Source: a virus. From it: 64,000 bases of DNA. Position 1 is the first letter of the stretch. Every line of letters starts with the position of its first letter. The stretch spans positions 91,703 to 155,702 of IMG/VR virus record IMGVR_UViG_3300021505_000001; one strand, given 5' to 3'. Below the pieces are notes generated by a model. It did not search any database and was not told the origin of the DNA. It saw only the letters and a program-made list of their open reading frames with translations. The translations under genes were made by a program, and so were the position numbers. This document shows positions 3,026 to 62,994 of this stretch, piece after piece.

Positions 3026-3035
3026 ATAAATACCT

Positions 3036-3353
3036 TTACTTACTGTTCAGTAGTTTAGCATTTTTTATTATGGACATTATTTTATTAAATAACTGTTGTA
3101 TTTTTTCAGAAACTTTGTTTGCTTCTTTTACTGTTGCTATACCTACCATATAGGAATAATTCTCTATATTTTCAACAACTACTTTTCCGTATATTAATTT
3201 ATTTTTGGAAGTCTTTGCAGACAGTTTTTCCAATGTAGGGGTTAAATATCTTGATACGGGAACTTTTACAAAAACCAAAATATAGTCTTTGTCCATTAAT
3301 TTTATCTCTATTTTTGCATTACTGTTAAGCATTTTTTCTAAAACTTTTTCCAT
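3036..3353 (-). CDS. Hypothetical protein
   Basis: 105-aa ORF with AGGAG SD. Confidence 0.7.
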   Translation of the reverse strand: MEKVLEKMLNSNAKIEIKLMDKDYILVFVKVPVSRYLTPTLEKLSAKTSKNKLIYGKVVVENIENYSYMVGIATVKEANKVSEKIQQLFNKIMSIIKNAKLLNSK

Positions 3354-3366
3354 TTTTTTAATCTCC

Positions 3367-5439: not shown

Positions 5440-5462
5440 AATGTTTTATCCTATAAAACATT
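5440..5462. promoter_or_regulatory. Back-to-back putative late promoters (TAAAACATT on both strands)
   Basis: aatgtttta (5440-5448) and taaaacatt (5454-5462) sit between divergent genes. Confidence 0.6.
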
Positions 5463-16601: not shown

Positions 16602-18434
16602 ATGTTAACTGTAGATGAAACCACTAAAAAATTAAAAGAGTTACTTAAAACAACTCATCCAATGCAGATAGCTTCTAAGCTCAGACTTGGAAAAGCTTAT
16701 AGAAATATTTATGAAAGTCTAATTAAACACACATCATTTTTAGATTCCTATAATCCAACTATTACAGAAAGAATATATTGTTTACTGAATGAAATATATA
16801 GTAGACCAAAATGTGAAACTTGTGGAAAAACGGTTAAATTTCATTCTCTTACTGAAGGATATCCCAAATATTGTTCAAACCGTTGTGTAGGAAAGTCAAA
16901 AAATCGTATTAAAAAACAACAAAAAACCTGTCTAAAAAAATATGGGGACATATCTCCTCTCAGTAAAAAATCTTCATGTTACAATAGAGTGAAAGAGGGT
17001 GTTATTAAAAAATATGGTGTTGATAATGTTCAAAAAGTAAAAGAAATACAAGAGAAGAGAAAACAAACATGTCAAGAAAGATATGGTGTTTCGCATCCAA
17101 TGCAGTGCCATAATATATCTACAAAATATGCTTCAACACTTAAAGTATCTTTATTGAAAAAATATGGTGTTGATAATGTAGCTAAACTTCCTCATATACA
17201 AACCAAAATCTCTAAAACACATAAATCTGAAAAAACAAAAGTAAAAATAAGACAAACCTTAAAAAAGAAATATGGTTTGGATGTCTGTAATGTTAGTCAA
17301 ATCCCTGCCGTTAAGAAAAAGATTAGAATTACAATGGCAGAAAAATATGGTGGTTGGAAGAATCAAGAACACATTAAAAATTTTGAAAAATACAATGATA
17401 GTAGTTTTTGGAATAAAGAATTTGTTTTATCAAACAGGACACTCGATGTTGCTGGAGCGTGCCAATTCTTTGGAGTGAGCGATCAAACTATTAAACATCA
17501 TGCTACAGAGATTTTAAGATTAAATATTAACCTACCCCGAAATAGCTCAAAAATTAAACAAGAAATAGCTTTATTCGTTAAACAATTACTTGGTAAACAA
17601 GAAGTCTTTTGTAATACTAGAAAAGTGATACCACCATTTGAAATAGATGTTTATGTTCCATCTAAACATCTTGCTATTGAGTTAGATGGTGTTTATTGGC
17701 ATTCAATTGGTAAGTATCCATGGAATAACTTGGCTAATGAGTATTATGAAAAAAACAGATTAGTTAGAAAATTTGAAAAAATAAAGGAAAAAGGATTAAA
17801 TCTTTTAAATTTCAGAGATATTGAATGGATTCACAAACAACAAATCTGTAAAAGTATGATTAAAAGCAAATTAAGTCTTATAGATAGAAAAATATCTGCC
17901 AGAAAGTGTGAATTAGTTGAATTATCTACTGATAAAACAAATTCATTTTTGAATCAAAATCATTTACAAGGAAGTGTTCCTGGTGGTAAAATTAGATTAA
18001 GTTTGATGTCTAATAACGAAATTGTTTGTGTAGCAACATTTGGGAAGTGGAGATTTGGAAAAAATAGTTGGGAATTACTTAGATTTTCCAATAAAATTGA
18101 TACTGTTGTTGTAGGAGGAATTTCTAAAATAATCAAACATTTTCTTAAAAGTTATAAAACAAATAAACTTATATCATATGCTAATAAACGTTGGTCTAAT
18201 GGAAATGTTTATAGAAAGATAGGATTTGAATTTATAAGGGATACAGGATTGGGTTATTGTTATGTTCATCCTTCTACAAAACAATTGATTTCAAGACAAA
18301 CTTTTCAGAAACATAAACTATACAGTTTATTAGGGGATAAATTTGATAAGAATAAAACAGAAAAGCAAAATATGATTAATGCAGGATATAGAGTTCTATA
18401 TGAACCTGGAAATTTGCTTTTTCAAATTAAATAG
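16602..18434 (+). CDS. Hef-like free-standing homing endonuclease (KKYG repeats plus PD-(D/E)xK-type nuclease domain)
   Basis: Zn-finger CETC...YCSNRC; repeated TCLKKYG/KKYGVDNV; PPFEIDVYVPSKHLAIELDGVYWH; ELLRF, YANKRWSNG. Paralogue of 28229-29995. Confidence 0.75.
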   Translation: MLTVDETTKKLKELLKTTHPMQIASKLRLGKAYRNIYESLIKHTSFLDSYNPTITERIYCLLNEIYSRPKCETCGKTVKFHSLTEGYPKYCSNRCVGKSKNRIKKQQKTCLKKYGDISPLSKKSSCYNRVKEGVIKKYGVDNVQKVKEIQEKRKQTCQERYGVSHPMQCHNISTKYASTLKVSLLKKYGVDNVAKLPHIQTKISKTHKSEKTKVKIRQTLKKKYGLDVCNVSQIPAVKKKIRITMAEKYGGWKNQEHIKNFEKYNDSSFWNKEFVLSNRTLDVAGACQFFGVSDQTIKHHATEILRLNINLPRNSSKIKQEIALFVKQLLGKQEVFCNTRKVIPPFEIDVYVPSKHLAIELDGVYWHSIGKYPWNNLANEYYEKNRLVRKFEKIKEKGLNLLNFRDIEWIHKQQICKSMIKSKLSLIDRKISARKCELVELSTDKTNSFLNQNHLQGSVPGGKIRLSLMSNNEIVCVATFGKWRFGKNSWELLRFSNKIDTVVVGGISKIIKHFLKSYKTNKLISYANKRWSNGNVYRKIGFEFIRDTGLGYCYVHPSTKQLISRQTFQKHKLYSLLGDKFDKNKTEKQNMINAGYRVLYEPGNLLFQIK

Positions 18435-28228: not shown

Positions 28229-29995
28229 TCAAAGAAATAAATATTTTAGATTACCAGCGTCATAGATTCTTCTATATCCATGTATGTATAAATTTTCTGA
28301 AGTACTTAGATTGGAATTAAAATTTGGTAGGAGTTTTTTTAATTTATATCGTTGGAAACTAATTCTATGCTTTAAAGAATAAATATCATCCTGATGAAAA
28401 ACCCAAAAATTTGGTTTGGTTATCGATAAAAGCTTGAAATTATTTATTTCATAAACACTACCATTACTCCATCTACGATTAGCAAAACTTATAATTTTAC
28501 AGTTTCCATTGTGTTTTAAAAGCTTTGAAAACCCACCAACAACAGATATATATTTTAAATTACAATAGCGTAACAATTCAATTGTATCTTGATTTCCAAA
28601 ACGAGATTTGCCAAAAGACATACAGGCAACTAACATATTTTTAAATAATAATCCTATATGTAAATTTCCACCAACAATACCTCCTTGTAAATGATTATCA
28701 TAATAAAAATTATTTGCTTCTTTTTGAGATAGTTTAATTATATTACAATTTCTTGCATAAATCTTCTTTTTAAAAAGACCAAACTTAGAAGATATAACAG
28801 ACTCCCAAATTTTTTGTTTGTTAGGATTATTCCATTCATTTTCAAAAATCTGAAGTAGTAAGATACCTTTTTGAGAAGCTTTATTAGCCTTTTCCCATAG
28901 TCTACTTTTTAGTTTACCTTCCATATAAGCATTATTTGGGTGGTAACCAAATGAATGCCATATCATACTATGGAATTCTATTCCTATTTTCTTTTCAGGA
29001 ACATAAACATCTATTTCAAATGGTGGGATAACATTTCTTACATTTAATTCTATTTTATCTATTCCAATTGATTCTAAAAAGTCTTTAATTTCCACCTCAA
29101 ATCGGGAGTGTCCTCTATATGGTTTATAAGGAATACCAATACGATTTAAATGACATCTGATATTAGTTAAATTATTTATCCCAAAAAAAGACATCATTTC
29201 CCGATAGCGAATAGTTCCATCAGAATTAATAAAATTCTCTTTAATAAAAGAACTATTATTCCATAAATCAAGATTTTTTATATGCCTTTGTGATGGATTA
29301 GATACACCATAACGTTGCATACAAGTATTTTCTCTTTTTTCAACTATAGCTTTAAGCTGGCTAACATTATCGACACCATACCTCTTTTTTACTGTCTCTT
29401 TAATCTTTCTTTTAACTTTATCTGATTGAGATGGATGGCAACCATAATTCTCTACAAATTTTCTTTTTATCTTTCTTTTTATTATTTCAGATTGGAAAGT
29501 AAATTCTGTACCATATCTTTCTTTATTTGTTTTCTTTCGTTTTTCAGTAGCTTTTTTACTATGAGCTTTTAATGAATTGTTTTTTTGAAAATTAGAATTA
29601 TGAAAATTTGAGGCATAACCATACCTTTTTATAAAAGTAGCTTTTGTAGCCTCTTTTAAATGAATTTTACGAGCTTCTAAACTTCCATATTTTTTAATCC
29701 AAGTTTCTTCAGTTTTTTTCTTTTTCCTTTCATCACTATTAGCACACTTAATACTACAGTAAGGAGCATAACCTTTATTAAAAGATATAAAACGAGATTT
29801 TTTTAATTTACAATGTTTGCATATAGAAGTACCGTATAGGATAACATATAATCTTTCACTAAGAGAACTATCCTCTGAAAGGAAATTTGTAGCTCTTATA
29901 ATTTTCTCTAACAAATCTTTCTTAGTACGAAAAATTAAACCAAAACTTTTTGGTGATTTATCTTTAATAAGTTTACTTATTTCCTGTTTTAACAT
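28229..29995 (-). CDS. Hef-like free-standing homing endonuclease 2
   Basis: CKHC...YCSIKC; KKYG/ERYG repeats; PPFEIDVYVPEKKIGIEFHSMIWH; ELLRYC; FANRRWSNG. Paralogue of 16602. Confidence 0.75.
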   Translation of the reverse strand: MLKQEISKLIKDKSPKSFGLIFRTKKDLLEKIIRATNFLSEDSSLSERLYVILYGTSICKHCKLKKSRFISFNKGYAPYCSIKCANSDERKKKKTEETWIKKYGSLEARKIHLKEATKATFIKRYGYASNFHNSNFQKNNSLKAHSKKATEKRKKTNKERYGTEFTFQSEIIKRKIKRKFVENYGCHPSQSDKVKRKIKETVKKRYGVDNVSQLKAIVEKRENTCMQRYGVSNPSQRHIKNLDLWNNSSFIKENFINSDGTIRYREMMSFFGINNLTNIRCHLNRIGIPYKPYRGHSRFEVEIKDFLESIGIDKIELNVRNVIPPFEIDVYVPEKKIGIEFHSMIWHSFGYHPNNAYMEGKLKSRLWEKANKASQKGILLLQIFENEWNNPNKQKIWESVISSKFGLFKKKIYARNCNIIKLSQKEANNFYYDNHLQGGIVGGNLHIGLLFKNMLVACMSFGKSRFGNQDTIELLRYCNLKYISVVGGFSKLLKHNGNCKIISFANRRWSNGSVYEINNFKLLSITKPNFWVFHQDDIYSLKHRISFQRYKLKKLLPNFNSNLSTSENLYIHGYRRIYDAGNLKYLFL

Positions 29996-30104: not shown

Positions 30105-31178
30105 CTATGAAATAGTTACAACTCCATAAAGGTCTGTCATTGGATAAGCTTTTGCGTAGAATGAACCTACACTTCTAATCCAAGTCCAGTTTTCTATATT
30201 ATAGAAGCTGTCCATAATTACAAGTGGAATATATGGGGCATAAATAGCTCCACATTCAAGTTCACTACTTCCCTTATAACCAACAAGAATGCTGTTAATA
30301 TTAAGATTCGGAACCACGTAAATATCAAATTCATCGTTAAGAGTTCCTTGCAGGAAGAGCCTCTTAATACTTTGTGGATTTCCAGGACTTCCAACACCAA
30401 TATAGTCCCCACTTCTCTTCATATAAGCAGCAACACGTGGATTACAAACTGTAAAGTTTGGATAACGTCTTGTTTTGTTATAAATTTCAGATGCTACATC
30501 AACAATACTATAGAAAAGTTCTTTTTCTTTTCTATCTTTAGTTTGTGGAGAATCAGCAGGAATAGGAGCTGACCAACTTGCAGTTGCCCCTGTAGCATTA
30601 TTGAATAAGTCATACAAAATTTCAAAATTGATTTCTTCAACAATTTTAGAAGCTAATGCTTTGGTAATTTCCTGTTCAAGGTTCATCCCAAGTTTTGAAG
30701 TAGCATCAGCAGCTTCAAATGTCCAACGACCTGCTAATTTTCTCTGACGTGCCCTTGCCCCTTCTTCACGGACAACAAAATCAATAGCTTTTGTAACATC
30801 TTGACCTTCACCAGGGTCATTTGAATAGTTAACAGTTACGTTATCAATTGCTGAATCCCCAGCGGAAATACCCTCAGCAGCAAAATCTGTTGAATAAACA
30901 TAGTCAATATACTGAACCAAAGCAACCCTATCAGGTATTGGTTGTACACCAACCAGTTTATTAACCAGACTATCACGTGCTAATTTCTTAATAGCAGGAA
31001 GAAACACAGTAGCAATTCTATCAATATTTGCTGTTGTAGTTTGTTCTGCTATTCTGGTAAGTTCCTTAGTTTCATTATCCAAAAGAGAATGATACATATC
31101 TATCATTTCCTCTGGAATACCAGCAATATCATTTTTTGCTTCTGTAATGTATTGAAGGATTTTTTCTTCTTTATCCAT
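30105..31178 (-). CDS. Major capsid protein, compact T4 gp23-like (start revised to ATG 31178)
   Basis: LVGVQP, ARQRKLAGRWTFEAA, LEQEITKALASKIVEEINFEIL, VGYKGSSELECGAIYAPYIPL. Likely propeptide cleavage after IAE. AAGGAGG SD. Confidence 0.9.
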   Translation of the reverse strand: MDKEEKILQYITEAKNDIAGIPEEMIDMYHSLLDNETKELTRIAEQTTTANIDRIATVFLPAIKKLARDSLVNKLVGVQPIPDRVALVQYIDYVYSTDFAAEGISAGDSAIDNVTVNYSNDPGEGQDVTKAIDFVVREEGARARQRKLAGRWTFEAADATSKLGMNLEQEITKALASKIVEEINFEILYDLFNNATGATASWSAPIPADSPQTKDRKEKELFYSIVDVASEIYNKTRRYPNFTVCNPRVAAYMKRSGDYIGVGSPGNPQSIKRLFLQGTLNDEFDIYVVPNLNINSILVGYKGSSELECGAIYAPYIPLVIMDSFYNIENWTWIRSVGSFYAKAYPMTDLYGVVTIS

Positions 31179-31197
31179 TATTAATTTCCCTCCTTTA

Positions 31198-33822
31198 TTA
31201 TACACTCTTCATAAGTTTTGAGAAAAGTGGATTTATTGAATCTTTATGATTATTTTTTTCGCCCTTTACCCGTGCTTTACCCCCTGTTGGAATAAAATCA
31301 AAACCATTCTCATGTTTACGTGAACGAGATTCATGGAATTTTTGCCCAAGTTTAAGTAACTTATCAGCTACTTTTTCCAATTCATCCATATCAGAAACAT
31401 CTTCAAATTCTGCTTTAATTGTTTCAATATCAAGACCCACAGAATCAGCAAGTTCCCTTATTTTAGATTCCTTCACTCTTTCAAGTTCCATTGCCTGAAC
31501 TTCCATAAAGGTTTCTTGATAATCTTTCATAAGTTTTTCTGTAGCTTTTATAAGTTCTTCCTCAGAATTAATAGTGATCCCCTCAAAATTGTTTTCCATC
31601 ATTGTTTTTAATTGTTCAAACAACATATCCTCATTTCCTCCTGTTTTTTCGGAAAATTTTTGGTTTTTATTTTCTTCTGGATTTAAAGGTTCCTCTGGTT
31701 TTTTATTTTCTCCTTTTTCTTCCTCTTCTTCCTTTGGCATATCAGATAAGGAAACCATTACAATAGCAAAAACATCTTTAATTTTCTCATCAATAACCTC
31801 ACGTGTAAGTACTTCCTGTGTTGGAAGTTCTCTTCCAAGATAAGCAGATAAAAGAGCTTGAGTCATAGACAAAATGGTAAGAAAATCATCATTTTTTGCA
31901 AACTCAACTAATTTATCAATAAAATTAGTTTGAAATGACGCTACATCCTCTATATTGAAAGCTTCACCAAATGTTGACGGAGTACCATCTTCATTAAATG
32001 CAACCTTATCAACAAGAACAGCTAAATTAACTTCAGGAAGATTATCAGTATCCGCTTTAACATTATTAGTAGATTGTTCTTTTACTTCTCCATTTGCACT
32101 ATGAATAAGAGTATTTATGATTGCATTAACAATATTTTTGTAAGCTATATTTTTATCAACAACAATTTTACTTTCAGAAGATTCATCTTCAATTTCAATG
32201 AATCCCTTTGTAACTGCACTTTCAATAACTGGTGTAGCAAAGTCATCCATATCATCGATTTCAAATCTATCTAAGATATTTACACGTTCAGCTACATTTC
32301 TAAGAGACTTTGGAATTTCACCAAGTCCTTCTTTTTCAATTTCCTGATACTTTGAAAGAAGGAATTTCATAAGAGCTTTCTTCTCTTTCTTTGTAAGTGC
32401 CATTCCAGCTCTTCCTTGCATAAAAACCAAAGCTGTTTTGAGACCATTCTTATTAAGAACAGCATCAATGTCATATCCTTCCTCTTTAGACTTAAATAAT
32501 TGATAAACAGGATATTTAAGATTGTCCTCATCAGTGGGGTCTCCATCTACAAGCCCAAACAATTGTTTGGCAAGTTTTTCATCTCCAACTAAAGACACAA
32601 TTTGTTTAAGTTTATCTTTATTAACATTACCCCATTCAGTATCAGATACCCTTTCTGATATTGGTACTACTCTTATTTTTGGGGGATTATCTGAAGAAAA
32701 AGATTTACCAGCAAAGTAAACTACTTTTCCCTTAGAAGCTTTTTCAAGGAACTTTGTATAAGATTCCTTTACTTCTTCCAATTTTTCTTTAGTTTCATTA
32801 TACTGAGCTGTTAATTCTTCAAACTCTTTTTTCTTTTTTTCAAGAGTTTCTTCTAATTCACTTTGTTTTTCCTTAAGGGAATTTTCGAGTTTGCTGAGAC
32901 CAGTAACAATTGATTCTTTCTTTTGAAGTTTTTGATTCAGATCTTCAAGACTTGCTGTAATTGAATCCAATTCTTCCTTAGAAGATTGAATATCATGCTC
33001 AATTTTTTCTTTCTCAAAAGCAAGCTGTTTGACCTGAAGCTCAACTTCTTTTGGCTCCAGTTTGTAACTCATATTAGTTTTCCTCCTGTTTTCGAATAAT
33101 CGTTGTTTATTTTCAGATGAATGAAATAAGTCCATTATTTCTTCGGTATTCATACCTGTTTCTTTTGATACATCTAAAGCAAAACTTTCTAAAACTCTAC
33201 TAAATTGATTATCACTTGTATTGTTTTCCATATCATAAAGCGGATGATATGTTTCATCTAAATCAATAAAATCTGGTTTGATACCATTTGTAGTTTTTTC
33301 AACTATTTTTCCATGGTTAACATGAGTAGTAACAAAAGATGGATAGACTACAAAATCAATACCCTCAAGTTTTAAATCATAACGTCTGTTTATATTTAAT
33401 ATTTTTCCACTTTGAGTTTTATAGGTATCAGGTGTACTCTTTGCATCTCCTCTTATTGATACTCCAACAAAATAACCATTATCTATTAACCATGATATTA
33501 ATCTTCCATATATCGTAGGTAAAAGTGTAAAATCAGCTTTTACAACTTTTTCTCTGTCATCGTAGTAAATATCATCTACTACCCCAGCTAATAAACCTAT
33601 CCACTCTTCATCTTCATTTTTTGGATGTTTCGCAAATGAATACTTATATGTTGGGTCTAACTCTACAAGTCTTTTGTAGAAGTCAATCCCTTTTAATACC
33701 TCATCTTTTGGAAAAATATTTGTATTGCGCCCAGGCCTGTCAGTATATACAACAGGGACACCTTCTATTTTTTTAGGCTTAAACGAATCTACAAATATAT
33801 TATTTTCCAATTTTGTATCCAT
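31198..33822 (-). CDS. Prohead protease (T4 gp21-like) fused to coiled-coil scaffold
   Basis: RNTNIFP, KHP, VGVSIRG, IDFVVYPS in the N-terminal ~170 aa, then a long K/E coiled coil. Directly upstream of the capsid gene. Confidence 0.85.
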   Translation of the reverse strand: MDTKLENNIFVDSFKPKKIEGVPVVYTDRPGRNTNIFPKDEVLKGIDFYKRLVELDPTYKYSFAKHPKNEDEEWIGLLAGVVDDIYYDDREKVVKADFTLLPTIYGRLISWLIDNGYFVGVSIRGDAKSTPDTYKTQSGKILNINRRYDLKLEGIDFVVYPSFVTTHVNHGKIVEKTTNGIKPDFIDLDETYHPLYDMENNTSDNQFSRVLESFALDVSKETGMNTEEIMDLFHSSENKQRLFENRRKTNMSYKLEPKEVELQVKQLAFEKEKIEHDIQSSKEELDSITASLEDLNQKLQKKESIVTGLSKLENSLKEKQSELEETLEKKKKEFEELTAQYNETKEKLEEVKESYTKFLEKASKGKVVYFAGKSFSSDNPPKIRVVPISERVSDTEWGNVNKDKLKQIVSLVGDEKLAKQLFGLVDGDPTDEDNLKYPVYQLFKSKEEGYDIDAVLNKNGLKTALVFMQGRAGMALTKKEKKALMKFLLSKYQEIEKEGLGEIPKSLRNVAERVNILDRFEIDDMDDFATPVIESAVTKGFIEIEDESSESKIVVDKNIAYKNIVNAIINTLIHSANGEVKEQSTNNVKADTDNLPEVNLAVLVDKVAFNEDGTPSTFGEAFNIEDVASFQTNFIDKLVEFAKNDDFLTILSMTQALLSAYLGRELPTQEVLTREVIDEKIKDVFAIVMVSLSDMPKEEEEEKGENKKPEEPLNPEENKNQKFSEKTGGNEDMLFEQLKTMMENNFEGITINSEEELIKATEKLMKDYQETFMEVQAMELERVKESKIRELADSVGLDIETIKAEFEDVSDMDELEKVADKLLKLGQKFHESRSRKHENGFDFIPTGGKARVKGEKNNHKDSINPLFSKLMKSV

Positions 33823-34009
33823 TTTTTTAATTAATTTTTTAGTTTATTTTAGTTACCGTTTCTTAATGTTTTATATTGCGAAATTTTTAACTGATTTAAG
33901 TAATTGAATTAACTAAAAAAGAAGTATAAGGTAGGTAAATTGTAGATTAGGATATTTTAAGATGGGTTTTTATGGTAGGATTTTTATAAAGAAAACAATA
34001 ACTTAAACT

Positions 34010-46592: not shown

Positions 46593-47288
46593 TTATTTTG
46601 GATATTCAAACAAATTTCCAACTATTTTTGAAATACTATCGTAAGAGGGTTTGACATAATACTTTTGTAATTTACCAAAAGTATTATATCGAAAGAAAGT
46701 TCCATTTTTTTCCATATCATTCAAATCAGTAGCCCAATTTTTGCCAATATCATATAACATTTGATGCATATCACATTGTTTCTTGCCTTTAAGCTGTTTA
46801 TTAGAAAAGAAATGTCTACAATACATTTGAAGGCTATTCTTTTTCCAATCCATTGCACGCCACAGCAAACAATTTACGACTTCATTATGAGGGATATTGA
46901 AAGCTCTGGCATCAAATACAACAGGATTTTCATAACTCCCATACAATTTATTAAAGAAAACAGACATATAAGATGCTGTAACACTTTCAATTTTGTTTAG
47001 TCTATAACCAAACCATGCTTCTGTGTTCAAAGTATCATAATCAGCAAGACAAAATGTAACTTCATCACTTTGAACATAAGCTATTTTAAAACCCTGCATT
47101 TGGCGGGAAACTTCTATCGCTGAGTTTACCATAGCTTCCATCAATTGACTATCAAAAGGCCTTTTACAATGTTTTGTAAACGTATGAAAAGCCTTTCCAT
47201 CAACCCGAACTATTAATGGGGTTCTCCTTAAAGCATACCTTTGTGTTACAAATTCATAACGTTTAAAACGTTCCCCTATAGTAAGCAT
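46593..47288 (-). CDS. thg1: tRNA(His) guanylyltransferase / Thg1-like 3'-5' polymerase
   Basis: IVRVDGKAFHTFT, AYVQSDEVTF, FDARAF, WRAMD, KNG. Confidence 0.9.
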   Translation of the reverse strand: MLTIGERFKRYEFVTQRYALRRTPLIVRVDGKAFHTFTKHCKRPFDSQLMEAMVNSAIEVSRQMQGFKIAYVQSDEVTFCLADYDTLNTEAWFGYRLNKIESVTASYMSVFFNKLYGSYENPVVFDARAFNIPHNEVVNCLLWRAMDWKKNSLQMYCRHFFSNKQLKGKKQCDMHQMLYDIGKNWATDLNDMEKNGTFFRYNTFGKLQKYYVKPSYDSISKIVGNLFEYPK

Positions 47289-48027: not shown

Positions 48028-48369
48028 TTAAAACTTTTTGAAAGACTCAACAATATCCTTTATACTGAAAGTAACTGTTGTTTCTCCTGTATTGTTTTCA
48101 ATAATAGAATCAAAAACAGGAAGATTTGCATCCGATTCTACAACATCAAAAGTAAAAAGTTTTGTTGTATGTAATCCTTTAATTTGAAAAAGTTCCTCAT
48201 CTGTAAATTCATGTACACCAAAACCCTGCTTATAGTGACATCGAGGACATCTTTCTATAGCTCTAAAAACAGGACTTGTTTCTGAATCAAAATACTCATT
48301 GAATTGTTTTATATACTCATCTGAAATCCTTAATTGGATTCCACAATTCTTACATTTATAGCTTTCCAA
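48028..48369 (-). CDS. Zinc-finger hypothetical protein
   Basis: CKNC...CPRC; AGGAGG SD with TTG start. Confidence 0.65.
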   Translation of the reverse strand: MESYKCKNCGIQLRISDEYIKQFNEYFDSETSPVFRAIERCPRCHYKQGFGVHEFTDEELFQIKGLHTTKLFTFDVVESDANLPVFDSIIENNTGETTVTFSIKDIVESFKKF

Positions 48370-48753
48370 AACAAACGTCCCCTCCTTATTAATCCTAAAA
48401 ATTTTTTTATTTTATCTCTATAAATATACATACAAAAAATGGAATAACAATAATTTTCTAAATATATAAAACATTCTGTATAGATATCTAAGAAAAGTTC
48501 CTATATTTTCTATGATTTATAATAACATACTTATCAAAAACCCACCAAAGTAAGGTATAGATAAATGGAAAAACATTATACATAACTACTTCTGTCTAAT
48601 CTTTATATAAAGGTTGAATCTTAATGGCATTATAAAATAATTTATGATGTAGATTAAGTAATAAAAATTTGTGAGTTGAGACAGAAGTTAGAAAAATTAT
48701 TTATTTTCAATTATTGTATTTAAAAACTTCGTCTCTCACATAAGAGGATTAAT

Positions 48754-49116
48754 ATGCCATTACACATTCCTATAAAAATATCAGATTCTACCTTTATAAT
48801 CGAAAGTAAATTAATTATATTTATAATAAATGGCACTCTGACAGCTATTATAGGGGGAATAGTTAGAAATTTAACGGATTATTCTGATACTATAAGAGAT
48901 TTAATCATTGAGGGGATAGTTGCAGGATTCCTTGGATTTATAGCTTCTTTATTTTGCTATGAACACCAATTTACTTTCTCTCATGTACTTATAACTTGCA
49001 GTATTTGTGGGTTTCTAACAAGAAATATTTTAAAAAATTTAAATGAAGTTGAACTATTAATAACAAAGTGGAAAGAATTCACTGATTTTATAAAAAATAA
49101 TCCTGATGATAAATAG
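48754..49116 (+). CDS. Putative holin (LydA-like, about 3 TM)
   Basis: Hydrophobic segments with AIIGGIVR, GIVAGFLGFIA, SICGFL and a charged C-terminus, the pattern of LydA-type phage holins. AGAGGA SD. Confidence 0.6.
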   Translation: MPLHIPIKISDSTFIIESKLIIFIINGTLTAIIGGIVRNLTDYSDTIRDLIIEGIVAGFLGFIASLFCYEHQFTFSHVLITCSICGFLTRNILKNLNEVELLITKWKEFTDFIKNNPDDK

Positions 49117-49127
49117 AGGTATTTAAA

Positions 49128-49721
49128 ATGAATAAAAAACTTCAAGGTTTTTTAATATTTTTGTCTGTTGCTATAATCTTATTTGGTATATTTACTCCTT
49201 CATTGTTATTAATAGTATTTGTAGGGTATCTTCTATTTTATGAAGGTATTTGCCTGATAAGTGGATTTTTTGAATGGATGGAATCTAAAAAAGAAAGGTA
49301 TTATGAAGTTACTGGAACTGTAAAAAACTTGATAGGAACACATCTAAGGGCATCTCTATTTATAATATTTCCTTTAGCTTCTATTACTTTAATTATTACA
49401 GACATCCAAAACTATCATACATGGAAAGCAATTTTATATCCATATACAGATTTTCTAACAATTTTAAATCATACAAGTAATAGTGCTGAATTAAACATAG
49501 GTAGATTCCTTTTTGAAACAACTACAAGAGCATTTCTTATATTCAATTCTCTTCAGATTATACATACTTCTATAGTTTTAGAAAGAATAATTGGTGTAAG
49601 ATTTACCAAAAAATATCCTCCTCTTACAAATATAATCTACAAAATAGTTAAATGGGCTAAAGAATGTGATGAAACTAAAATTATAGATACTGCTGAAATA
49701 ATTTCCTTCTTAGAGAAATAG
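49128..49721 (+). CDS. Multi-pass membrane protein
   Basis: 197 aa with 3-4 hydrophobic segments; GAGGT SD. Confidence 0.7.
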   Translation: MNKKLQGFLIFLSVAIILFGIFTPSLLLIVFVGYLLFYEGICLISGFFEWMESKKERYYEVTGTVKNLIGTHLRASLFIIFPLASITLIITDIQNYHTWKAILYPYTDFLTILNHTSNSAELNIGRFLFETTTRAFLIFNSLQIIHTSIVLERIIGVRFTKKYPPLTNIIYKIVKWAKECDETKIIDTAEIISFLEK

Positions 49722-49723
49722 TT

Positions 49724-50275
49724 ATGACAAATGAAAAATGTCCAACAATAAGAATCATAGATAATAATGTTACTATTTTAGAGATATTACAAGATGTTTG
49801 TTCTTCTACATGGAAAAATGCAAACATAAAAACATATCTTGGTAATAATAATCTAAAACTATTGGAACTCTGTAACTCTTCACTTTTGATATTAGATCAA
49901 ATACTAGATAATACAACAGGTATTGAAATTATCAAAGAAATGGCAAATAGTTATAAAGATAAAGAATTACCTGCTGTTATTCTTATGACAGGGATTCCTA
50001 AAAATGAAATACTCAGTATAATTAAAGAAAGTAATATCATGGATAGGGTAAAAAACTTAATAATTCTATTTAAACCATTTCATATAGTAACTTTACATGA
50101 AGTAGCCTGTAATATGTGTATTGAGTTATGTAACGAAAAACTATTTTCTGTTGATTGTGATTGTCATAATAACAACTTTCAAGAGAAGTCAAAATCTATA
50201 GTACAAAAGTTATTCAACGTTATCAAAAATAAACAAAGAAAACCTACTCATAAACAAATAATAAATGAAAATTAA
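49724..50275 (+). CDS. Single-domain response-regulator receiver (CheY-like) with Cys-rich tail
   Basis: IRIIDN, LLILDQILDNTTGIEII (phosphoacceptor Asp), VILMTG, LFKPF; then CNMCIELC...CDCH. Confidence 0.8.
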   Translation: MTNEKCPTIRIIDNNVTILEILQDVCSSTWKNANIKTYLGNNNLKLLELCNSSLLILDQILDNTTGIEIIKEMANSYKDKELPAVILMTGIPKNEILSIIKESNIMDRVKNLIILFKPFHIVTLHEVACNMCIELCNEKLFSVDCDCHNNNFQEKSKSIVQKLFNVIKNKQRKPTHKQIINEN

Positions 50276-50279
50276 AACT

Positions 50280-51677
50280 TTATGTCATTGAACATTGTTT
50301 TGCCATATTAACTACAAATTGTTTCTCAAATTGAGTTTTAATCCCAATATTATCTAAGAAATTATTAAACCAACGTTTTGTCTGGTTCATACCTCTTTCA
50401 GTAAGAGGAGTAAGTATATCTTCCTTAAATCCTGTTTTGTTCCTTAAACGAATTGTAGAAAATTCTGGCATTTCATAATCTGGAACATTCTGATTTTCCA
50501 TTCGTTTTGTATATGCCCTAGTATCAGCACCTATTTTTGAAGCAAAAATTAGTTGATTTGAAATATAAGCTTCGTTGGCTACAGGACCCGGATATCGTAT
50601 TTCCAATCTTCCACCTGATCCAAACCTAAAATCATGTCTTTCAGAATCATAACTTTTCCGCATACCAAGATAACTTGATGATTCCCACCTAGGATTAGTT
50701 TTCGTTAAAGCATTAAATATACTACCTACATGATTAAGATATGTTGATATAACTTCTTGTTTATGTGTATCAGAATTAGGAACAGTAGTGGATATATGCA
50801 TCCCAGCAAATTTATCCATTACAACATCACGTCTATCTAAAATACCTGTTTGCTTCCAAGCATTTGTCATAAGATGAGACATCATAATCATATTTGATAA
50901 TGGAGCTGAACCTATAACAATTTCTCTGGCTGTTCTATTTCCTATAGAAGAAAAAGACCCATCATTATAAGCTGTAAAAGATGTTGAAGTAGAATGACCA
51001 GAAGAAAAATCATATGTCATTAAAGGTGAAACTTCTATTCCTGTTGTTTCTTTAATTGGGTCTATTACAATTTTATTTAATAGTTTTTGTTCAGGTGTTC
51101 CACTGGGTATTTTCCATCTACCCTCATATTCTAATGAAAAATAATTTGGATGCAAAGCAAAATTTGGAACAAATATACCTTTCTTACTATTTAATGGAAC
51201 AATCTTTCCATATTTAAGTAATTCCTTAACATGTGTTTTATTTACAGGATTTTTAGAAATATTACTAATAACAAAGTTATCTAAATCAATTCCATTTTTA
51301 AAATTAGATTTATTAATCTCTTGTAATGTCTTTTTGAAATCTAAACTGCGTTGTGAATACTGCTGATTTTCTGAATGCAATCTTTTCTTTTTTTTAAGCT
51401 TATAATTCATTACATCTATAGTTGCTAACTTAACATTTCCATCATCTTCAATATCCCATATATATGGAATTGAAGAAGCCTCTATAGGTAATTTAAATTT
51501 ATTTCCTTTTCCTCCATTAAATAAACGTATCTGTCTATCTATTTTAAGTTTATCTAAATCTATACTTTCTCCTATTGTTTTATAGACTTCAGGAGATAAA
51601 TGTAAATCAGCAGTATTTGTTAATTTTTGTAAATATTTAGAAGTTTTTTGTGCTAAATCATTGTAATCAATTGTCAT
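50280..51677 (-). CDS. Putative amidoligase (COOH-NH2 ligase, glutamine-synthetase-fold family)
   Basis: FSLEYE, YDFS, REIV, AGMHIS and RLEIR motifs in the family order. Confidence 0.6.
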   Translation of the reverse strand: MTIDYNDLAQKTSKYLQKLTNTADLHLSPEVYKTIGESIDLDKLKIDRQIRLFNGGKGNKFKLPIEASSIPYIWDIEDDGNVKLATIDVMNYKLKKKKRLHSENQQYSQRSLDFKKTLQEINKSNFKNGIDLDNFVISNISKNPVNKTHVKELLKYGKIVPLNSKKGIFVPNFALHPNYFSLEYEGRWKIPSGTPEQKLLNKIVIDPIKETTGIEVSPLMTYDFSSGHSTSTSFTAYNDGSFSSIGNRTAREIVIGSAPLSNMIMMSHLMTNAWKQTGILDRRDVVMDKFAGMHISTTVPNSDTHKQEVISTYLNHVGSIFNALTKTNPRWESSSYLGMRKSYDSERHDFRFGSGGRLEIRYPGPVANEAYISNQLIFASKIGADTRAYTKRMENQNVPDYEMPEFSTIRLRNKTGFKEDILTPLTERGMNQTKRWFNNFLDNIGIKTQFEKQFVVNMAKQCSMT

Positions 51678-52707: not shown

Positions 52708-55641
52708 TTATCCTCTACAGTGGGTACTATACATTTCCCACCAGAATTTTTGTCCAACTGGATTGTTTATTCCCATAACTTCTTTTAATAGTTTTTTAAA
52801 TGAAGTACTATTATCCCATCCTTCAGTAGGAGGAATAAGTTTATCAGTTTTTGCAAAATTTCCTCGTTGTAACCCACCTTGGTATATATCAGATGCTAAT
52901 TTGGTTGTAAAAGCTAAATGAGCTAAACTAAAATCACCTCCAGGTCTAAAAATAGCTGTACGATTTTCAATAATTCCATGAGCAGTTAATTTATGTACAG
53001 CTACAGTACGATATTTTGCTAAACGATTTTCATTTGAAGAGGCATGGAAAGCGTTAATTTGTCCATAGTGTTCCCCATGTTTTCTTAACCATTCATATTC
53101 AGTTAACCCATTCCTAGCCATTCTAACGTTGGAAACATCTTGTGCCCAAAATTGACGACCTCCATATTCAGCTACATTTCTTGCTGCCTCCGGTGTTAAC
53201 CGTCCAATATTTGCAAAAGTATCTCCTGATGGCATTACACCATTATCATAAGGCCATCCACTTATAGCTCTATAACGATAACGATTATCAGGACTTGTGG
53301 CTTTTTTGTAAAAATCTTCTGTAAGACGTAAATAATCAGCCATAAAACGTATGGAATCTTTTCTAAGACCTGGAGGAATACTTCCTACATTAACATGTAT
53401 TCCAACTGGATCATTTCTACTATAACTATGGTGTTGTATTTCCTGTGCCCCAAAATCCTTTAACGCCTCAGCAAACATATAAGTGGCTTTAAATCCTCTG
53501 ATTCCTGACATAGTTGGAGATACATATTCGGTTCCACCACCAGGAATAGAAGGTTCTGATGTAGTGTTCCAATCTCCAACAAAACCCAAATTATTAAGTT
53601 TATATCCAAAACGGTTTTCAACATGATTTAAAATATCTCTTATTCCTGTAAATATATTTGTCTCCCATTCCATTCCCATTGTAAAATCAGGGGAAGCAAA
53701 TGATGGAACAAATATAGCATCACTTCCTTTTATAGGAATAATATATCCATTTCCTAAAGCATCACGGTAAGGTATATCTGTATTCAATAAATTCCATTCT
53801 TCTGTATCCCAATTTATATTTGGAGTAGATGCATTTCGAACATCTATATCCTGATTATTATTACGCATTAATTGGGAATGGAATGCCTGAGTACCTATAG
53901 CATCTGTTAACCATATTTGTTTACCATCTTCAGTTTTACCAACTAAAGCTCCACCAAGAGACAAAGCTTTTTTTCTTAAATTAGAAAGCTCATTTGGATT
54001 ATCAACAATAACTTTATCAAAAGCATCAGTAGGTAAAGAATTTTTACCTACTTGTTCATAGAACTTTTCTGAAGAATCATTAATATCAAATTGTTTCCTA
54101 AGATTATTTAATTTCTTTAAGGCTTTAATGGTTCTTTCAGTAGTTGCTACATTTGGAATACCTTCCTTTTCAATACCACCTATTGGAAATCTTTCTTCTA
54201 AACGTTTAAATTCTTCTGGAGAAATAATTTCAGGACGAAAATCCAATCTTCCTCGTGAAGTTGTTTTTATTTTTCTACTTGCTTTCTCATAATTATCAAA
54301 TTCATCATTTGTAAATAAAGAATTTTCACTATCAAATAAAGAAAGAAGATTTTCTTCTGTAAGTGATTGTTCTGGTTGTTGTTCTTCACGTCTTTCAGGT
54401 TGTCGTTCTTCACGTCTTTCAGGTTGTCTCTCTGGTTGTCTTTCAGGTTCCTCACGTATAGGAGTTTCTTCACGTCTTTCAGGTTGTCTTTCAGGTTCCT
54501 CACGTGTAGGTGATTGTTCTGGTTGTCGTTCTTCACGTCTTTCAGGTTCCTCACGTGTAGGAGTTTCTTCACGTCTTTGTTGTGCTTCCTCAGTAGTAAT
54601 TTCTCCTTCATCATCAAAGGTAAGTGTTTCACTTCTAAAACTATTAAGTAAATCCCCAATTGAAATACCACTTTGAGAACTTTCTTCGTTTAAATTGGTA
54701 GAATCTTCATGTGATGCTTCAGAATATCTTTGTTGAGATTCATAATTAGCAAGTCCAATATAAGGATTAGAATGATCAATTGTATTAAGAAATTGTTGTA
54801 TATTAAGATTGCCACTTTCATCTTTACTATTATCAAGTGCCTCAAAAGTTCTACGGCGTAACGATGGACCATCTAATGGAAAACCATTATTAGTACCTCC
54901 CCGTGCAAAAACTGTTTCTAATCTACTATCAAACGAACGGGCACTTAAACTAACATTATTATGAAAATAAGTATTAAAGTCAACTGGAGGAGTACCTTGT
55001 TCATCTCCATAGGCTATTTTATAAAATGGATTATAACAACCTGATAAACCAAATCTATTTGCTATATCCCTAAAATATTCACCACCATTATTTTCATTTT
55101 CTGTATAGGCTGAACCCATAGGAAGGTCAAATTCTCTGGAACCTACATATTGTAGAACATCCATAATCTTTATATCATCTGCATCGACTTCATCATTAAA
55201 AGCCATTAAAGCATTAGCAGATATAGAAGGTGAACTATAAACACCACCATATACTAAAGGCACACCAGTAGTATTTAAATTATTACTATGATATTTATTA
55301 ATAACTGTATTGTAATAATGAGCAGCAGCTAAATGTCGAGTTCTAGCAGCTAAATCTCTATCAGAATTGGGTTCCGCATCTAAATGTGTAACAATCATTG
55401 CTTCATTACTACGTACACGAGTCAATTCTGTAGGAACCGTAGATAAAGCTGATGCTGTTGTTGGAAATTCTCCACCATCCCTATCCCTGAATCTAGTAAC
55501 CAGAAAACGCTGTCCTCCTAAAGTATTATGAACAAATGTCTCTACTCGTCGTCCACGTATAAGATTAGTATTATCCAGATGTTCATTAATACTATTAGTA
55601 TCTAATAAATCAACTTCACTGAGACTCCTAAATAAACGCAT
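52708..55641 (-). CDS. Large protein with C-terminal putative amidoligase domain and E/R/P/Q repeat linker
   Basis: FTMGMEWET, GTEYVSP, VGIHVNVG, KYRTV, IIENR; TAAAACATT at 55679-55687. Confidence 0.7.
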   Translation of the reverse strand: MRLFRSLSEVDLLDTNSINEHLDNTNLIRGRRVETFVHNTLGGQRFLVTRFRDRDGGEFPTTASALSTVPTELTRVRSNEAMIVTHLDAEPNSDRDLAARTRHLAAAHYYNTVINKYHSNNLNTTGVPLVYGGVYSSPSISANALMAFNDEVDADDIKIMDVLQYVGSREFDLPMGSAYTENENNGGEYFRDIANRFGLSGCYNPFYKIAYGDEQGTPPVDFNTYFHNNVSLSARSFDSRLETVFARGGTNNGFPLDGPSLRRRTFEALDNSKDESGNLNIQQFLNTIDHSNPYIGLANYESQQRYSEASHEDSTNLNEESSQSGISIGDLLNSFRSETLTFDDEGEITTEEAQQRREETPTREEPERREERQPEQSPTREEPERQPERREETPIREEPERQPERQPERREERQPERREEQQPEQSLTEENLLSLFDSENSLFTNDEFDNYEKASRKIKTTSRGRLDFRPEIISPEEFKRLEERFPIGGIEKEGIPNVATTERTIKALKKLNNLRKQFDINDSSEKFYEQVGKNSLPTDAFDKVIVDNPNELSNLRKKALSLGGALVGKTEDGKQIWLTDAIGTQAFHSQLMRNNNQDIDVRNASTPNINWDTEEWNLLNTDIPYRDALGNGYIIPIKGSDAIFVPSFASPDFTMGMEWETNIFTGIRDILNHVENRFGYKLNNLGFVGDWNTTSEPSIPGGGTEYVSPTMSGIRGFKATYMFAEALKDFGAQEIQHHSYSRNDPVGIHVNVGSIPPGLRKDSIRFMADYLRLTEDFYKKATSPDNRYRYRAISGWPYDNGVMPSGDTFANIGRLTPEAARNVAEYGGRQFWAQDVSNVRMARNGLTEYEWLRKHGEHYGQINAFHASSNENRLAKYRTVAVHKLTAHGIIENRTAIFRPGGDFSLAHLAFTTKLASDIYQGGLQRGNFAKTDKLIPPTEGWDNSTSFKKLLKEVMGINNPVGQKFWWEMYSTHCRG
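54363..54580. repeat. Imperfect tandem coding repeat (REEPERQPER / ERREE)
   Basis: Recurrent cacgtctttcaggtt and cttcacgtct units. Confidence 0.9.
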
Positions 55642-60630: not shown

Positions 60631-62994
60631 TTAATCCCAACTACGTTTTCTTATGGTTTCAAAATCATCTTTAATAAATATGTCCCCATTTTTAAAAACT
60701 GTATTCAAAAGTGGTTTCCAATCAAATGGCACTACATTTCTTTTATCTGTAGTTACATATTTACCTTCTGTTGTTTTATATAATGTAAGTAAACCTTTTT
60801 TACTAGCCTTCCATGGAGCATCTTTTGGACATTTAAAAACATCATACCATCCATTATTTCCATATATGGCACTACATTTCATAGCAAATTTATAAGTATC
60901 TCGATTTACTTGTTGTAAAAGACCTCCACCCATACCAAATGATATATTATCTACACTAAAATTTTCTGCTACAACAGCCTCCAGTATTTCATCAACAACA
61001 TCAGGATTGGATATTCCATCACCCTGAATAACTTTAACATAATTAATAACATTATAACCTTTACTATTTGATTGATACCCAAAACTATTTGCTAACATTT
61101 TAAGGGCACGAACAACCACTTCTTTTGGTTCTCCACTGTCTGGACGAATAACTACAGTTGCCCCGCTATTAATTACTTTCTGCTTTAACTCCTTACCCCA
61201 TATATTACTAATAGCATTATCCAAATCATAACTATCACTTACACAGGCAACAACTGTACCAGGTTTAGCAAACTCATCAAGTAAGCTTTCATATGCTTCT
61301 CTTTCTCGTTCTTTGCCCCAAGCTGTAATTGTACTATGTTCAGAATTACCACATACAACCACACAATCATTTCGTCTGACAACTAACATTCCACTGGGAA
61401 CAGTAATACAATAAATATTTCCTTTATAATCATATGTTTCAGCTATAAACTTATATCTTTTATATCTGCACTTACTGTTATATGTAAAACTAACTGTAAA
61501 CAGATTTTTACGATTATCTCTTTTATCCTTATAAAGATGTGTGCTTACAAAATAACCACATAGAGTACCTATAGCGGAAACAATATCTACTACCTTACGA
61601 TTTACTGTAGAAAAACTTATAGTTTGTTTCCCTGCTATCTTACCATCCCAATACTGTAATTCCTTAATAAAATGACGCCCCCATTCAAATGTTAATTTAC
61701 TAATATCTACCCATTCAAAATTTTTATCTATAGGTATATTTACTGGCCATTTAACATAAAAATGAGTTTGTCCTTTTTGAGTACCATTTGTTATTAAAGT
61801 TTGTGTATAATCCAAACCTGCTTCTTTCAATAATTTGCACAATCTATCTATTTTACGTTGCTTTTTAAATTTAAAACGTATTCCTTTACAACCACTTCTA
61901 CTACCATCACGCTTATCATCATCTGCAAAGAAAGACCCATCAGCCTGAAAAGCAACTCTTATAGCATCAATAGGTGTAAACTCATTACTGCCATTTTTAA
62001 TAAAACCACAATGTTTAAAAAACAAATTCCTATCATAATTTGTATCATCTGCATAAGTTACACATATCTTATTTTCATTATTAAAACGTATCATTCTATG
62101 ATTAGGTGTAACACAGATATCCAATCTTTTAGGAACACTGCTATTAAATCTATACATTTTACCATCATAGAATTCTGATACTTTATTTGTGTAATTAACA
62201 AATTCAATACTACCATCTTTATTATATTGAGCTACCTTTAAATTATCATCAAGTTCATCAAATCTTTTCCAGCCCTTTTCAGTTAAAATTTCAGTCTTTT
62301 CATCATAACATGCAGGCAGACTATATGCAGGCATTTCCTTTTTGTTTTTTTGGTCATAGTATTTCCATACACCTACAATGGCAGCTGTAGTATCAGTACC
62401 CATAAAGTTTACCAAATGAGATAAACCACCAATCATAGCACTCTGATAACTACTTACACCTCTAAAACCAAAATCATGTAATTTAAATGGGAGACCTTCA
62501 AGAGTATCACATGTTTTTTCCATCCATTTTTTTATAACTTGTTTTATTTCCCAACTTCTTGTTGCTACAGTAGTTGGATACCACATTTGTAATATTTGAG
62601 TTTCCATCCAACCAGGAAGCCAATAAAAATCAGGTTCCGTATTTTTAATAGTCATAATTACATTCTGAGTGGGAATTATTGTCCCTTCTGGAACAGCTTC
62701 TATTTCCATTGGATAATAACCCAAATCAACTATCTTCTTCCAACCATCATAGTTAAAAATACCTTTACCAACATGAATATCCCAAAAGTATTTTGCTTCC
62801 TCTACTTCTTCTATTGTTGGAAGTCTCAACAAAGCTTCTTCTATAATAGGCTTATATATAGGAAGAATATGCTTATTTTTACTTCTACTTTCTATATAGT
62901 AGAATGTCCCTTTTGTATCTGGTGGGAATTGTTTATAATGAGTACTTTTATAGCTATCTGTAGCTATTGCCGGATTGTAAGCTAATTGGAGCAT
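60631..62994 (-). CDS. nadV: Nicotinamide phosphoribosyltransferase, intein-containing
   Basis: TDSYK, LHDFGFRG, HLVNFMGTDT, PA|intein|SEHS, VSDSYD, IRPDSG, IQGDGI, FGMGGGLLQ, KSKKG-like ASKKG. Confidence 0.93.
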   Translation of the reverse strand: MLQLAYNPAIATDSYKSTHYKQFPPDTKGTFYYIESRSKNKHILPIYKPIIEEALLRLPTIEEVEEAKYFWDIHVGKGIFNYDGWKKIVDLGYYPMEIEAVPEGTIIPTQNVIMTIKNTEPDFYWLPGWMETQILQMWYPTTVATRSWEIKQVIKKWMEKTCDTLEGLPFKLHDFGFRGVSSYQSAMIGGLSHLVNFMGTDTTAAIVGVWKYYDQKNKKEMPAYSLPACYDEKTEILTEKGWKRFDELDDNLKVAQYNKDGSIEFVNYTNKVSEFYDGKMYRFNSSVPKRLDICVTPNHRMIRFNNENKICVTYADDTNYDRNLFFKHCGFIKNGSNEFTPIDAIRVAFQADGSFFADDDKRDGSRSGCKGIRFKFKKQRKIDRLCKLLKEAGLDYTQTLITNGTQKGQTHFYVKWPVNIPIDKNFEWVDISKLTFEWGRHFIKELQYWDGKIAGKQTISFSTVNRKVVDIVSAIGTLCGYFVSTHLYKDKRDNRKNLFTVSFTYNSKCRYKRYKFIAETYDYKGNIYCITVPSGMLVVRRNDCVVVCGNSEHSTITAWGKEREREAYESLLDEFAKPGTVVACVSDSYDLDNAISNIWGKELKQKVINSGATVVIRPDSGEPKEVVVRALKMLANSFGYQSNSKGYNVINYVKVIQGDGISNPDVVDEILEAVVAENFSVDNISFGMGGGLLQQVNRDTYKFAMKCSAIYGNNGWYDVFKCPKDAPWKASKKGLLTLYKTTEGKYVTTDKRNVVPFDWKPLLNTVFKNGDIFIKDDFETIRKRSWD
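61345..62310 (-). mobile_element. Intein (322 aa) with LAGLIDADG-type homing endonuclease
   Basis: Begins CYDEKTEILTEKGW; block B VTPNHRM; AFQADGS and LQYWDG motifs; ends IYCITVPSG...VCGN followed by Ser+1. Confidence 0.9.

Follow-up and report, generated by a model that had tools for sequence, protein, structure and literature searches.

The moment of lysis sets the burst size and fitness of a phage, and the regulators known to time it are, to our knowledge, few (the dual start of lambda S107, RI and RIII of T4, LydB of P1, and gp62 of N4), none of which uses a bacterial signaling domain. This work examines a three-gene locus in a 64,000-nucleotide stretch of viral DNA (referred to here as the window), which constitutes the final 64 kb of the 155.7-kb viral metagenome record IMGVR_UViG_3300021505_000001, itself estimated to be ~60% complete. 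The three genes encode a predicted LydA-family holin (ORF1), a multi-pass membrane protein (ORF2), and a putative stand-alone receiver of the CheY type (ORF3). Among described systems, the nearest is that of phage P1, in which the antiholin gene lydB lies directly behind lydA and delays lysis, with both genes unlinked to the endolysin gene (PMC9025707). LydB has been shown experimentally to be an antiholin and is devoid of membrane helices; its mechanism is unknown (PMC9025707). A second system is that of the Campylobacter Fletchervirus F352. Its LydA-like holin, the activity of which has been shown by experiment, is not encoded in a lysis cassette, and the gene that overlaps it on the downstream side is predicted to specify an antiholin (PMC7692668). 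In the lysis inhibition of T4, the timing of holin T is set by two antiholins, RI and RIII (PMC12642591).

The locus in the window resembles each of these systems in part. As with lydA and lydB of P1, a LydA-type holin gene is followed by accessory genes, and no endolysin gene adjoins them. LydB, however, is a single soluble protein of 147 aa, whereas two proteins are encoded downstream of the holin here, a membrane protein and a protein that folds as a receiver. The window phage and F352 are both T4-like and low in GC content, and both combine a class I LydA-like holin outside a cassette with a coupled downstream gene for a membrane protein. In F352, however, that protein has 61 aa and one membrane helix, and no receiver accompanies it; furthermore, the window phage is only remotely T4-like. 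T4 offers a parallel in that the timing of its holin is set, on a signal, by separate phage proteins, one of which (RIII) is cytoplasmic. The two systems differ, being unrelated in sequence and fold, and what T4 senses is superinfection, in the periplasm, with no phospho-receiver involved. Two-component signaling is linked to holin- and antiholin-like proteins in Staphylococcus, where LytSR controls the holin-like CidAB/LrgAB. That system is bacterial and acts transcriptionally via a DNA-binding regulator, whereas the effect considered here would be phage encoded and posttranslational. A search of the literature turned up no published account of a phage lysis system that includes a receiver domain. 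The "Receiver domain" of the N4 pinholin gp63 is the name of a mutational cluster rather than a CheY-like fold and was set aside as irrelevant (PMC12642591).

The locus consists of the following genes:

48754-49116, plus strand: ORF1, predicted LydA-family class I holin, 120 aa (PF16083, phrog_785, and hydropathy)

49128-49721, plus strand: ORF2, predicted inner-membrane protein with ~4 helices, 197 aa (hydropathy and homologues)

49724-50275, plus strand: ORF3, stand-alone CheY-like receiver by its modeled fold, 183 aa (AlphaFold2 fold, Foldseek, and conserved residues)

An initial annotation of the window, made from the sequence alone, had described three tightly linked plus-strand genes between neighbors of opposite strand, and this layout was confirmed, with gaps of 11 nt (ORF1-ORF2) and 2 nt (ORF2-ORF3) and with minus-strand genes on either side (48028-48369 and 50280-51677). 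No terminator-like site was found inside the trio. ORF2 and ORF3 are thus placed as antiholin-type genes are, directly adjoining the holin gene on the same strand with no internal terminator-like site, and we propose an antiholin-like position for them because they stand where LydB stands behind LydA in P1. The reading we favor, at a probability of roughly 45%, is that the trio constitutes a late-expressed lysis-control operon in which ORF2 and ORF3 form an antiholin-like regulator of lysis timing, adjusting when ORF1, the holin, fires or whether it does so at all. Under this reading, ORF2 would reside in the inner membrane beside the holin, its N terminus inside the cell and its conserved basic loop after helix 2 and C-terminal tail facing the cytoplasm. 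The soluble receiver would dock on these cytoplasmic segments in a state that could be set by phosphorylation of Asp58; with no kinase in the phage record, the phosphoryl group would come from acetyl-phosphate or from a kinase of the host. The state of ORF3 would then alter the interaction of ORF2 with the holin, shifting the timing of lysis with host physiology. We infer all contacts among the three proteins, as well as the phosphorylation and the effect on lysis.

ORF1 matches PF16083 (LydA holin, holin superfamily III) at 32.0 bits, above the cutoff of 28.4, over positions 5 to 77 of the 78-position profile, and it matches phrog_785 ("holin") at 1.2e-8. Hydrophobic segments, taken from hydropathy only, lie at residues 21-37, 50-66, and 73-89, giving three predicted membrane helices and a class I topology, and the C-terminal tail is charged (4 K/R and 6 D/E among the last 25 residues). 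Similarity to the P1 proteins is weak: BLASTP against P1 LydA gave 26% identity over 91 residues (E value, 0.04), and a shuffle test of local alignments gave a z-score of 5.7 for P1 LydC (0/500) and 3.2 for LydA (6/500). No dual-start motif was found in ORF1 (M-P-L-H...). With an above-cutoff family match, a match to phrog_785, and the topology of a holin, ORF1 is a predicted LydA-family class I holin, in line with the LydA-like assignment of the initial annotation. The lysis-timing reading is supported by ORF1 in that it passes the LydA cutoff with holin topology.

An exhaustive HMMER search with ORF3 was carried out against 1.8 billion representative proteins, and the contigs of the matches were then inspected. 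The search returned one clear homologue, P0003 (35% identity; E value, 4e-16), as well as three short stand-alone receivers among weak matches to ordinary response regulators. On all four contigs in question (L014, a contig of 68 kb, and L016, L018, and L020), an ORF2 homologue directly precedes the receiver gene, and the genes mostly overlap by 1 to 20 nt. Between the window and L014, pairwise identity is 36% for ORF2 (E value, 7e-30) and 35% for ORF3 (E value, 2e-23); to the other lineages, it is 24 to 29% and 22 to 25%, respectively (overall ranges, 24 to 38% for ORF2 and 22 to 35% for ORF3). A search with an ORF2 profile added one further protein, P0025. By homology and gene order, then, the ORF2-ORF3 pair is conserved, with its genes adjacent, across four or five divergent lineages of metagenomic phages, which is a new result. 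L014 is a distant relative of the window phage, with many proteins in common at 27 to 58% identity, and its trio sits among different neighbors, which indicates that the trio moved as a block. L018 has only the ORF2-ORF3 pair in common with the window phage. Given the different neighbors in L014 and the sharing of the pair alone with L018, the pair behaves as a mobile unit under selection. About 2.5 kb from the trio, L014 also carries a caspase-like Peptidase_C14 gene (13031-13891, minus strand).

Other searches returned nothing further. In a word-indexed search of 5.8 billion proteins, each single protein retrieved the query itself only; the identical protein is also encoded on a contig of 203 kb. 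Scans of IMG/VR with ORF1, ORF2, ORF3, both profiles, P0024, and P0007 gave no match, nor did a scan of metagenome contigs with the ORF2 profile. A scan of 185,579 species genomes likewise gave no match and hence no prophage or clue to the host. Among 50,697 GenBank phage records, blastn and tblastn found nothing for the region, for ORF3, for the L018 membrane protein, or for P0017, and a chance match only for ORF1.

Against PF00072, ORF3 scores 25.3 bits (25.9 bits in a six-frame search), which is below the cutoff of 30.2 and speaks against membership in the receiver family as that profile defines it; of its homologues, P0003 scores 18.1 bits and P0007 scores 32.9 bits, the latter above the cutoff. 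An AlphaFold2 model of ORF3, built from eight sequences, displays a (beta/alpha)5 fold, in which five strands alternate with five helices. The receiver spans residues ~8 to 131, and pLDDT exceeds 88 over residues 11 to 130. When this model was used as a Foldseek query, 466 PDB matches were retrieved at an E value of ≤0.001; among the matches listed, all are receiver domains or receiver-containing response regulators, the best including DrrB, RssB, PorX, CheY, and Spo0F (probability, 1.0). Despite the sub-cutoff Pfam score, ORF3 is, by its confidently modeled fold, a stand-alone CheY-like receiver, as first annotated.

The residues that had been singled out in the annotation are all present: an acidic pair reading DN (D13-N14), the phospho-acceptor Asp (D58, in LLILD), the switch Thr (T89, in LMTG), the Lys of the FKP motif (K117-P118), and a Cys-rich tail with five Cys and one His within residues 129 to 148 (C129, C132, C136, C145, C147, and H148). 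Alignments of the family show D58 and K117-P118 to be invariant, with Thr or Ser at position 89. The acidic pair after strand 1 is DN in the window phage and L014 and the canonical DD in L016, L018, and L020 (proteins including P0007 and P0017). Because these distant members keep the canonical DD...D...T...K set, the ancestral receiver of the family looks phosphorylatable. The lysis-timing reading draws support from this conservation, in which the receiver Asp and Lys-Pro are invariant, Thr or Ser is kept, and DD is found in distant relatives. Redox sensing through the Cys tail, which the initial annotation had also suggested, was rejected as a trait of the family, since a single Cys is invariant across it; the CxxCxxxC motif (three Cys) is common to the window and L014 only.

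Single-domain response regulators lack a DNA-binding output and work through contacts with other proteins. With CheY, Spo0F, DivK, and CpdR, ORF3 has in common the fold and the phospho-acceptor Asp, Thr, and Lys. It differs from them in being phage encoded with no kinase in the record, in having DN rather than DD, and in always being paired with an orphan membrane protein. It also carries an insertion before strand 5 and a C-terminal extension of ~50 residues, which is made up of a disordered, Cys-containing linker followed by an amphipathic helix that is basic in the window phage (residues 151 to 168; hydrophobic moment, 0.54; net charge, +3). This helix could serve as a membrane- or partner-docking element.

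ORF2, annotated from the outset as a multi-pass membrane protein, has ~4 long hydrophobic helices. It belongs to no family in Pfam or PHROGs and has no match above noise in the ESM Atlas, and its structure model shows helices, although with low confidence (pLDDT, 59.6). Its homologues in L014, L016, L018, and L020 are 24 to 38% identical, and the proteins range from 167 to 197 aa in length. Across them, 20 columns are invariant. These include W50, K55, E56, E60, and T62 in the basic loop after helix 2 (segment WxxxKKE..E.T); Q143, I145, H146, E152, and G156 in helix 4 (segment Q.IH....E...G); and P164, I170, and V174 in the tail (segment YPP...I). By the positive-inside rule, the conserved segments would be cytoplasmic and the length-variable region at residues 96 to 125 periplasmic. 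As judged from this alignment, ORF2 founds an undescribed family of membrane proteins, marked by invariant His, Glu, and Trp residues. Prediction of an ORF2-ORF3 complex gave a median score of 0.24 against a mark of 0.32, a value that counts neither for nor against binding.

Upstream DNA is available for three of the lineages, and in each of them the gene immediately ahead of the pair encodes a small membrane protein with several helices and a charged C terminus. ORF1 occupies this place in the window. The protein found there in L014 has 114 aa, three membrane helices, and a charged tail, and the one in L018 has 125 aa and three to four helices. L018 presents, in order, a tail-fiber gene, a Peptidase_M15_3 endolysin gene, the gene for the 125-aa membrane protein, the ORF2 homologue, and the receiver gene, all of which overlap from the endolysin to the receiver. 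The endolysin is identified by Peptidase_M15_3 (50.5 bits) and phrog_894 ("endolysin"; 7e-26), and its location after a tail-fiber gene is a typical position for a lysis cassette. Upstream of the pair, the contigs of L016 and L020 end almost immediately; in both, the pair is followed by a protein of 52 to 53 aa with two hydrophobic segments and a basic C terminus. The lysis link depends on two HMM-supported proteins from unrelated phages, one a holin and the other an endolysin, and the lysis-timing reading is supported in that the pair is conserved and repeatedly lies beside lysis genes (window and L018).

Another reading is that ORF2 is itself a lysis effector (a second holin, a pinholin-like protein, or a membrane-disrupting protein), with the receiver as its dedicated switch and ORF1 acting independently. 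Consistent with such a role, the ORF2-ORF3 partnership is conserved while the gene in the holin position varies, and P1 is known to carry several cooperating holins (PMC9025707). We nonetheless regard an effector role as very unlikely: ORF2 resembles no holin family, and at 167 to 197 aa with ~4 helices the proteins are larger than typical holins. Moreover, a small holin-like protein adjoins ORF2 in every lineage for which the relevant flank is visible.

A cultured phage provides a further point of comparison for the lysis-timing reading. A Foldseek search against viral models revealed that short stand-alone receivers exist in cultured phages, an example being Alteromonas phage V22 (L023; MN877442). 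At positions 2960-5039 of its genome, V22 encodes, in order, a papain-like amidase, a coiled-coil protein, the receiver ORF30, an Rz-like spanin, and a two-helix membrane protein. ORF30 is a canonical DD stand-alone receiver (79 bits), and its gene overlaps the one matching Rz-like spanins (7e-6). V22 is therefore like the window phage in placing a stand-alone receiver among candidate lysis genes. The two differ in that ORF30 belongs to another sequence family (the tblastn search of the phage records with ORF3 found none), in that its acidic pair is DD, and in that the proteins encoded next to it are tethered to the membrane and form coiled coils, in place of a four-helix protein. As an independent, cultured instance of a receiver among candidate lysis genes, V22 supports the lysis-timing reading.

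The authors of the V22 study, on the other hand, classed its CheY-like gene as a signaling auxiliary gene (PMC7289586). In keeping with that classification, ORF2-ORF3 might be an accessory host-takeover or signaling unit with no role in lysis, acting as a phosphate sink, as a decoy of a host two-component pathway at the membrane, or in superinfection exclusion; it would lie beside lysis genes because small late or accessory genes collect there. In favor of such a unit, the phage record lacks a kinase, so that any phospho-signal must come from the host. In L018, moreover, the overlapping string of genes that contains the pair continues with one for a thymidylate synthase (ThyX) and is hence not purely a lysis string. 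In addition, the upstream context of the pair in L016 and L020 lies beyond the contig ends. A genome has only a few lysis genes, yet the pair is adjoined in the window by a holin with Pfam support and, in the unrelated L018, is one gene away from an endolysin; in addition, the window phage and L014 share a trio that has moved as one block. On balance, we consider an accessory unit of this kind possible but doubtful.

The proposed late expression of the lysis-control operon draws on a short motif upstream of ORF1. The features relevant to this part are as follows:

48467-48475, plus strand: promoter-like motif TAAAACATT, overrepresented and shared with head-gene operons

48476-48753, plus strand: long leader between the motif and ORF1, with no ORF of ≥40 aa on the plus strand

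30105-31205: gp23 capsid gene, within the protease/scaffold-plus-capsid operon

The motif, which the initial annotation had noted upstream of the trio, is present there and overrepresented in the window: 14 copies occur against 4.6 expected, a number that was reached in 1 of 100 shuffles. Two operons with head genes are also preceded by it, that of the portal (copy at 5454) and that of the protease/scaffold plus capsid (copy at 33865). Sites recorded in the window are 794-802, 5440-5462, 8934, 15851/15874, 28213, 33865, 34689, 37254, 39305, and 55679. At most of the other sites, roughly 25 to 50 nt separate the motif from a start codon, and between divergent genes it often forms a palindromic pair, back to back. 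In L014, AAAAACATT lies 47 nt upstream of the trio, and sites of the motif are located at 3179-3194 and 9076-9094 of that contig. The motif is probably a late (or middle) promoter element of this phage group, with a late role made plausible by its position before the portal and the protease/scaffold-plus-capsid operons. That the trio lies behind the head-gene-operon motif in both the window phage and L014 supports the late lysis-operon reading. A riboswitch or other known RNA in the leader was considered and rejected; an Rfam search of 48476-48753 gave no match, and the z-score of the fold is only -1.67, which is unconvincing.

Several observations weigh against the lysis-timing reading. The first concerns the holin position. 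No clear homology links the proteins found there in the window, L014, and L018: BLASTP gave no match among them, and shuffle z-scores were -1.1 for ORF1 versus L018, 2.7 for ORF1 versus L014, and 3.6 for L014 versus L018. Those of L014 and L018, furthermore, match no holin family. Holins are notoriously diverse. Independent observations of lysis adjacency effectively number only two or three, and the family itself is tiny, comprising four or five lineages among the 1.8 billion representative proteins, none of them cultured. Homology of the accessory proteins to P1 LydB was rejected, with hhalign probabilities of 0.1% for the ORF3 family and 0.8% for the ORF2 family. The distance of 279 nt between the TAAAACATT copy and the ORF1 start is also far more than at most genes. 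The interpretation put forward in the initial annotation, that the receiver may gate the holin through the membrane protein, stands in part. The holin and receiver identities, the linkage of ORF2 with ORF3 (adjacent in four or five lineages), and their placement beside lysis genes were upheld. A homologous protein in the holin position was not demonstrable, so that the anticipated holin-receiver linkage holds for the pair alone, and redox sensing by the Cys tail was dropped.

Also counting against the reading is the lack of a kinase and of a recognized endolysin. No histidine kinase (HATPase_c or HisKA) was found in the window or in the 155.7-kb record, and the phosphoryl donor must on that account be provided by the host or by the missing 40% of the genome. 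No endolysin is among the Pfam matches of the window, and none adjoins the trio as in a canonical lysis cassette; Peptidase_M15_3, Phage_lysozyme, and SLT are absent from the record as well, other lysin families not having been searched individually. The earlier remark that neither a kinase nor an endolysin is visible in the window therefore holds and extends to the whole record for the families searched. About 56 kb upstream of the holin gene and outside the window, the record encodes a DUF5675 protein (102.6 bits; G000:C1:83793-84269, minus strand). DUF5675 has been grouped structurally with C82-type peptidases among phage lysins (2026 preprint 10.64898/2026.04.11.717860), and this protein is a possible candidate for the missing endolysin.

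A last objection arises from the acidic pocket, the second residue of which is Asn in the window phage instead of the acidic residue of a DD or ED pair. The second Asp of the pair binds Mg2+ in CheY, and phosphorylation of ORF3 in the window phage may be poor or weakened because Asn replaces this Mg2+-binding residue. Taken further, ORF3 could be a pseudo-receiver in the window phage, serving unphosphorylated as a constitutive cytoplasmic subunit or adaptor of ORF2 and responding, if at all, to another input, such as the amount of protein or the sensing of metal or redox state at its Cys-rich linker. The Asn common to the window and L014, the sub-cutoff PF00072 score, and the CxxCxxxC motif of the same two phages would all agree with this. 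Asp58, Thr/Ser89, and Lys117 are all kept, however, and distant members are fully canonical in their DD...D...T...K set; for an input at the linker in particular, only one Cys is invariant across the family. A pseudo-receiver therefore seems improbable to us.

The most specific form of the lysis-timing reading is that ORF2 and ORF3 constitute the first phospho-switch antiholin, in which ORF2 restrains the holin and the host-charged receiver either releases or reinforces that restraint. This we offer tentatively, as a conjecture with the odds against it. Were it true, the phage would read the energy or signaling state of its host to choose the moment of lysis, and a receiver wired to a holin would provide a direct posttranslational readout of host physiology at lysis, within a compact module of three genes and ~1.5 kb. 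Taken together with V22, it would amount to a general and undescribed input into phage lysis timing and would explain the recurrence in phages of stand-alone "CheY-like" genes, which are now filed as auxiliary signaling genes.

With regard to its source, the record encodes a T4-type major capsid protein, a portal, and a terminase, and the window has a GC content of ~30%. The terminase is only ~25% identical to that of any cultured phage, which together with the T4-type head genes indicates a deep-branching, uncultured, T4-like large phage. Near-identical copies of the locus (L002-L006), with 0 to 4 nucleotide differences per gene (a number too small for a test of purifying selection), come from several independent sequencing runs; because the same phage was assembled independently in several of them, the locus is not an assembly artifact. 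Two to three ankyrin-repeat proteins and a Kelch-repeat protein, which are unusual for phages, are encoded across the first 91.7 kb of the record and the window, and these repeats might point to a host associated with eukaryotes.

Other genes in the window were recorded in passing. Directly downstream of the trio and convergent with it, two minus-strand genes (50280-51677 and 52708-55641) encode proteins of 465 and 977 aa that belong to no Pfam or PHROG family. By eye, the two seem to share a C-terminal segment (FVPNFA..YFSLEYE versus FVPSFA..GMEWE), and the 977-aa protein carries a long acidic PERREE repeat. A nicotinamide phosphoribosyltransferase gene (60631-62994, minus strand) has split PHROG matches (residues 7 to 249 and 551 to 785), and the middle part of its product resembles families that contain inteins, a pattern consistent with an inserted intein. 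Among the structural genes are two that encode paralogous homing/HNH endonucleases of ~600 aa (16602-18434, plus strand, and 28229-29995, minus strand; phrog_3339, E value ~1e-113). Close upstream of the trio, a minus-strand gene (46593-47288) encodes a Thg1-like tRNA-His guanylyltransferase (PF04446, 99 bits; phrog_4717, 8e-73), in a window that has no tRNA gene.

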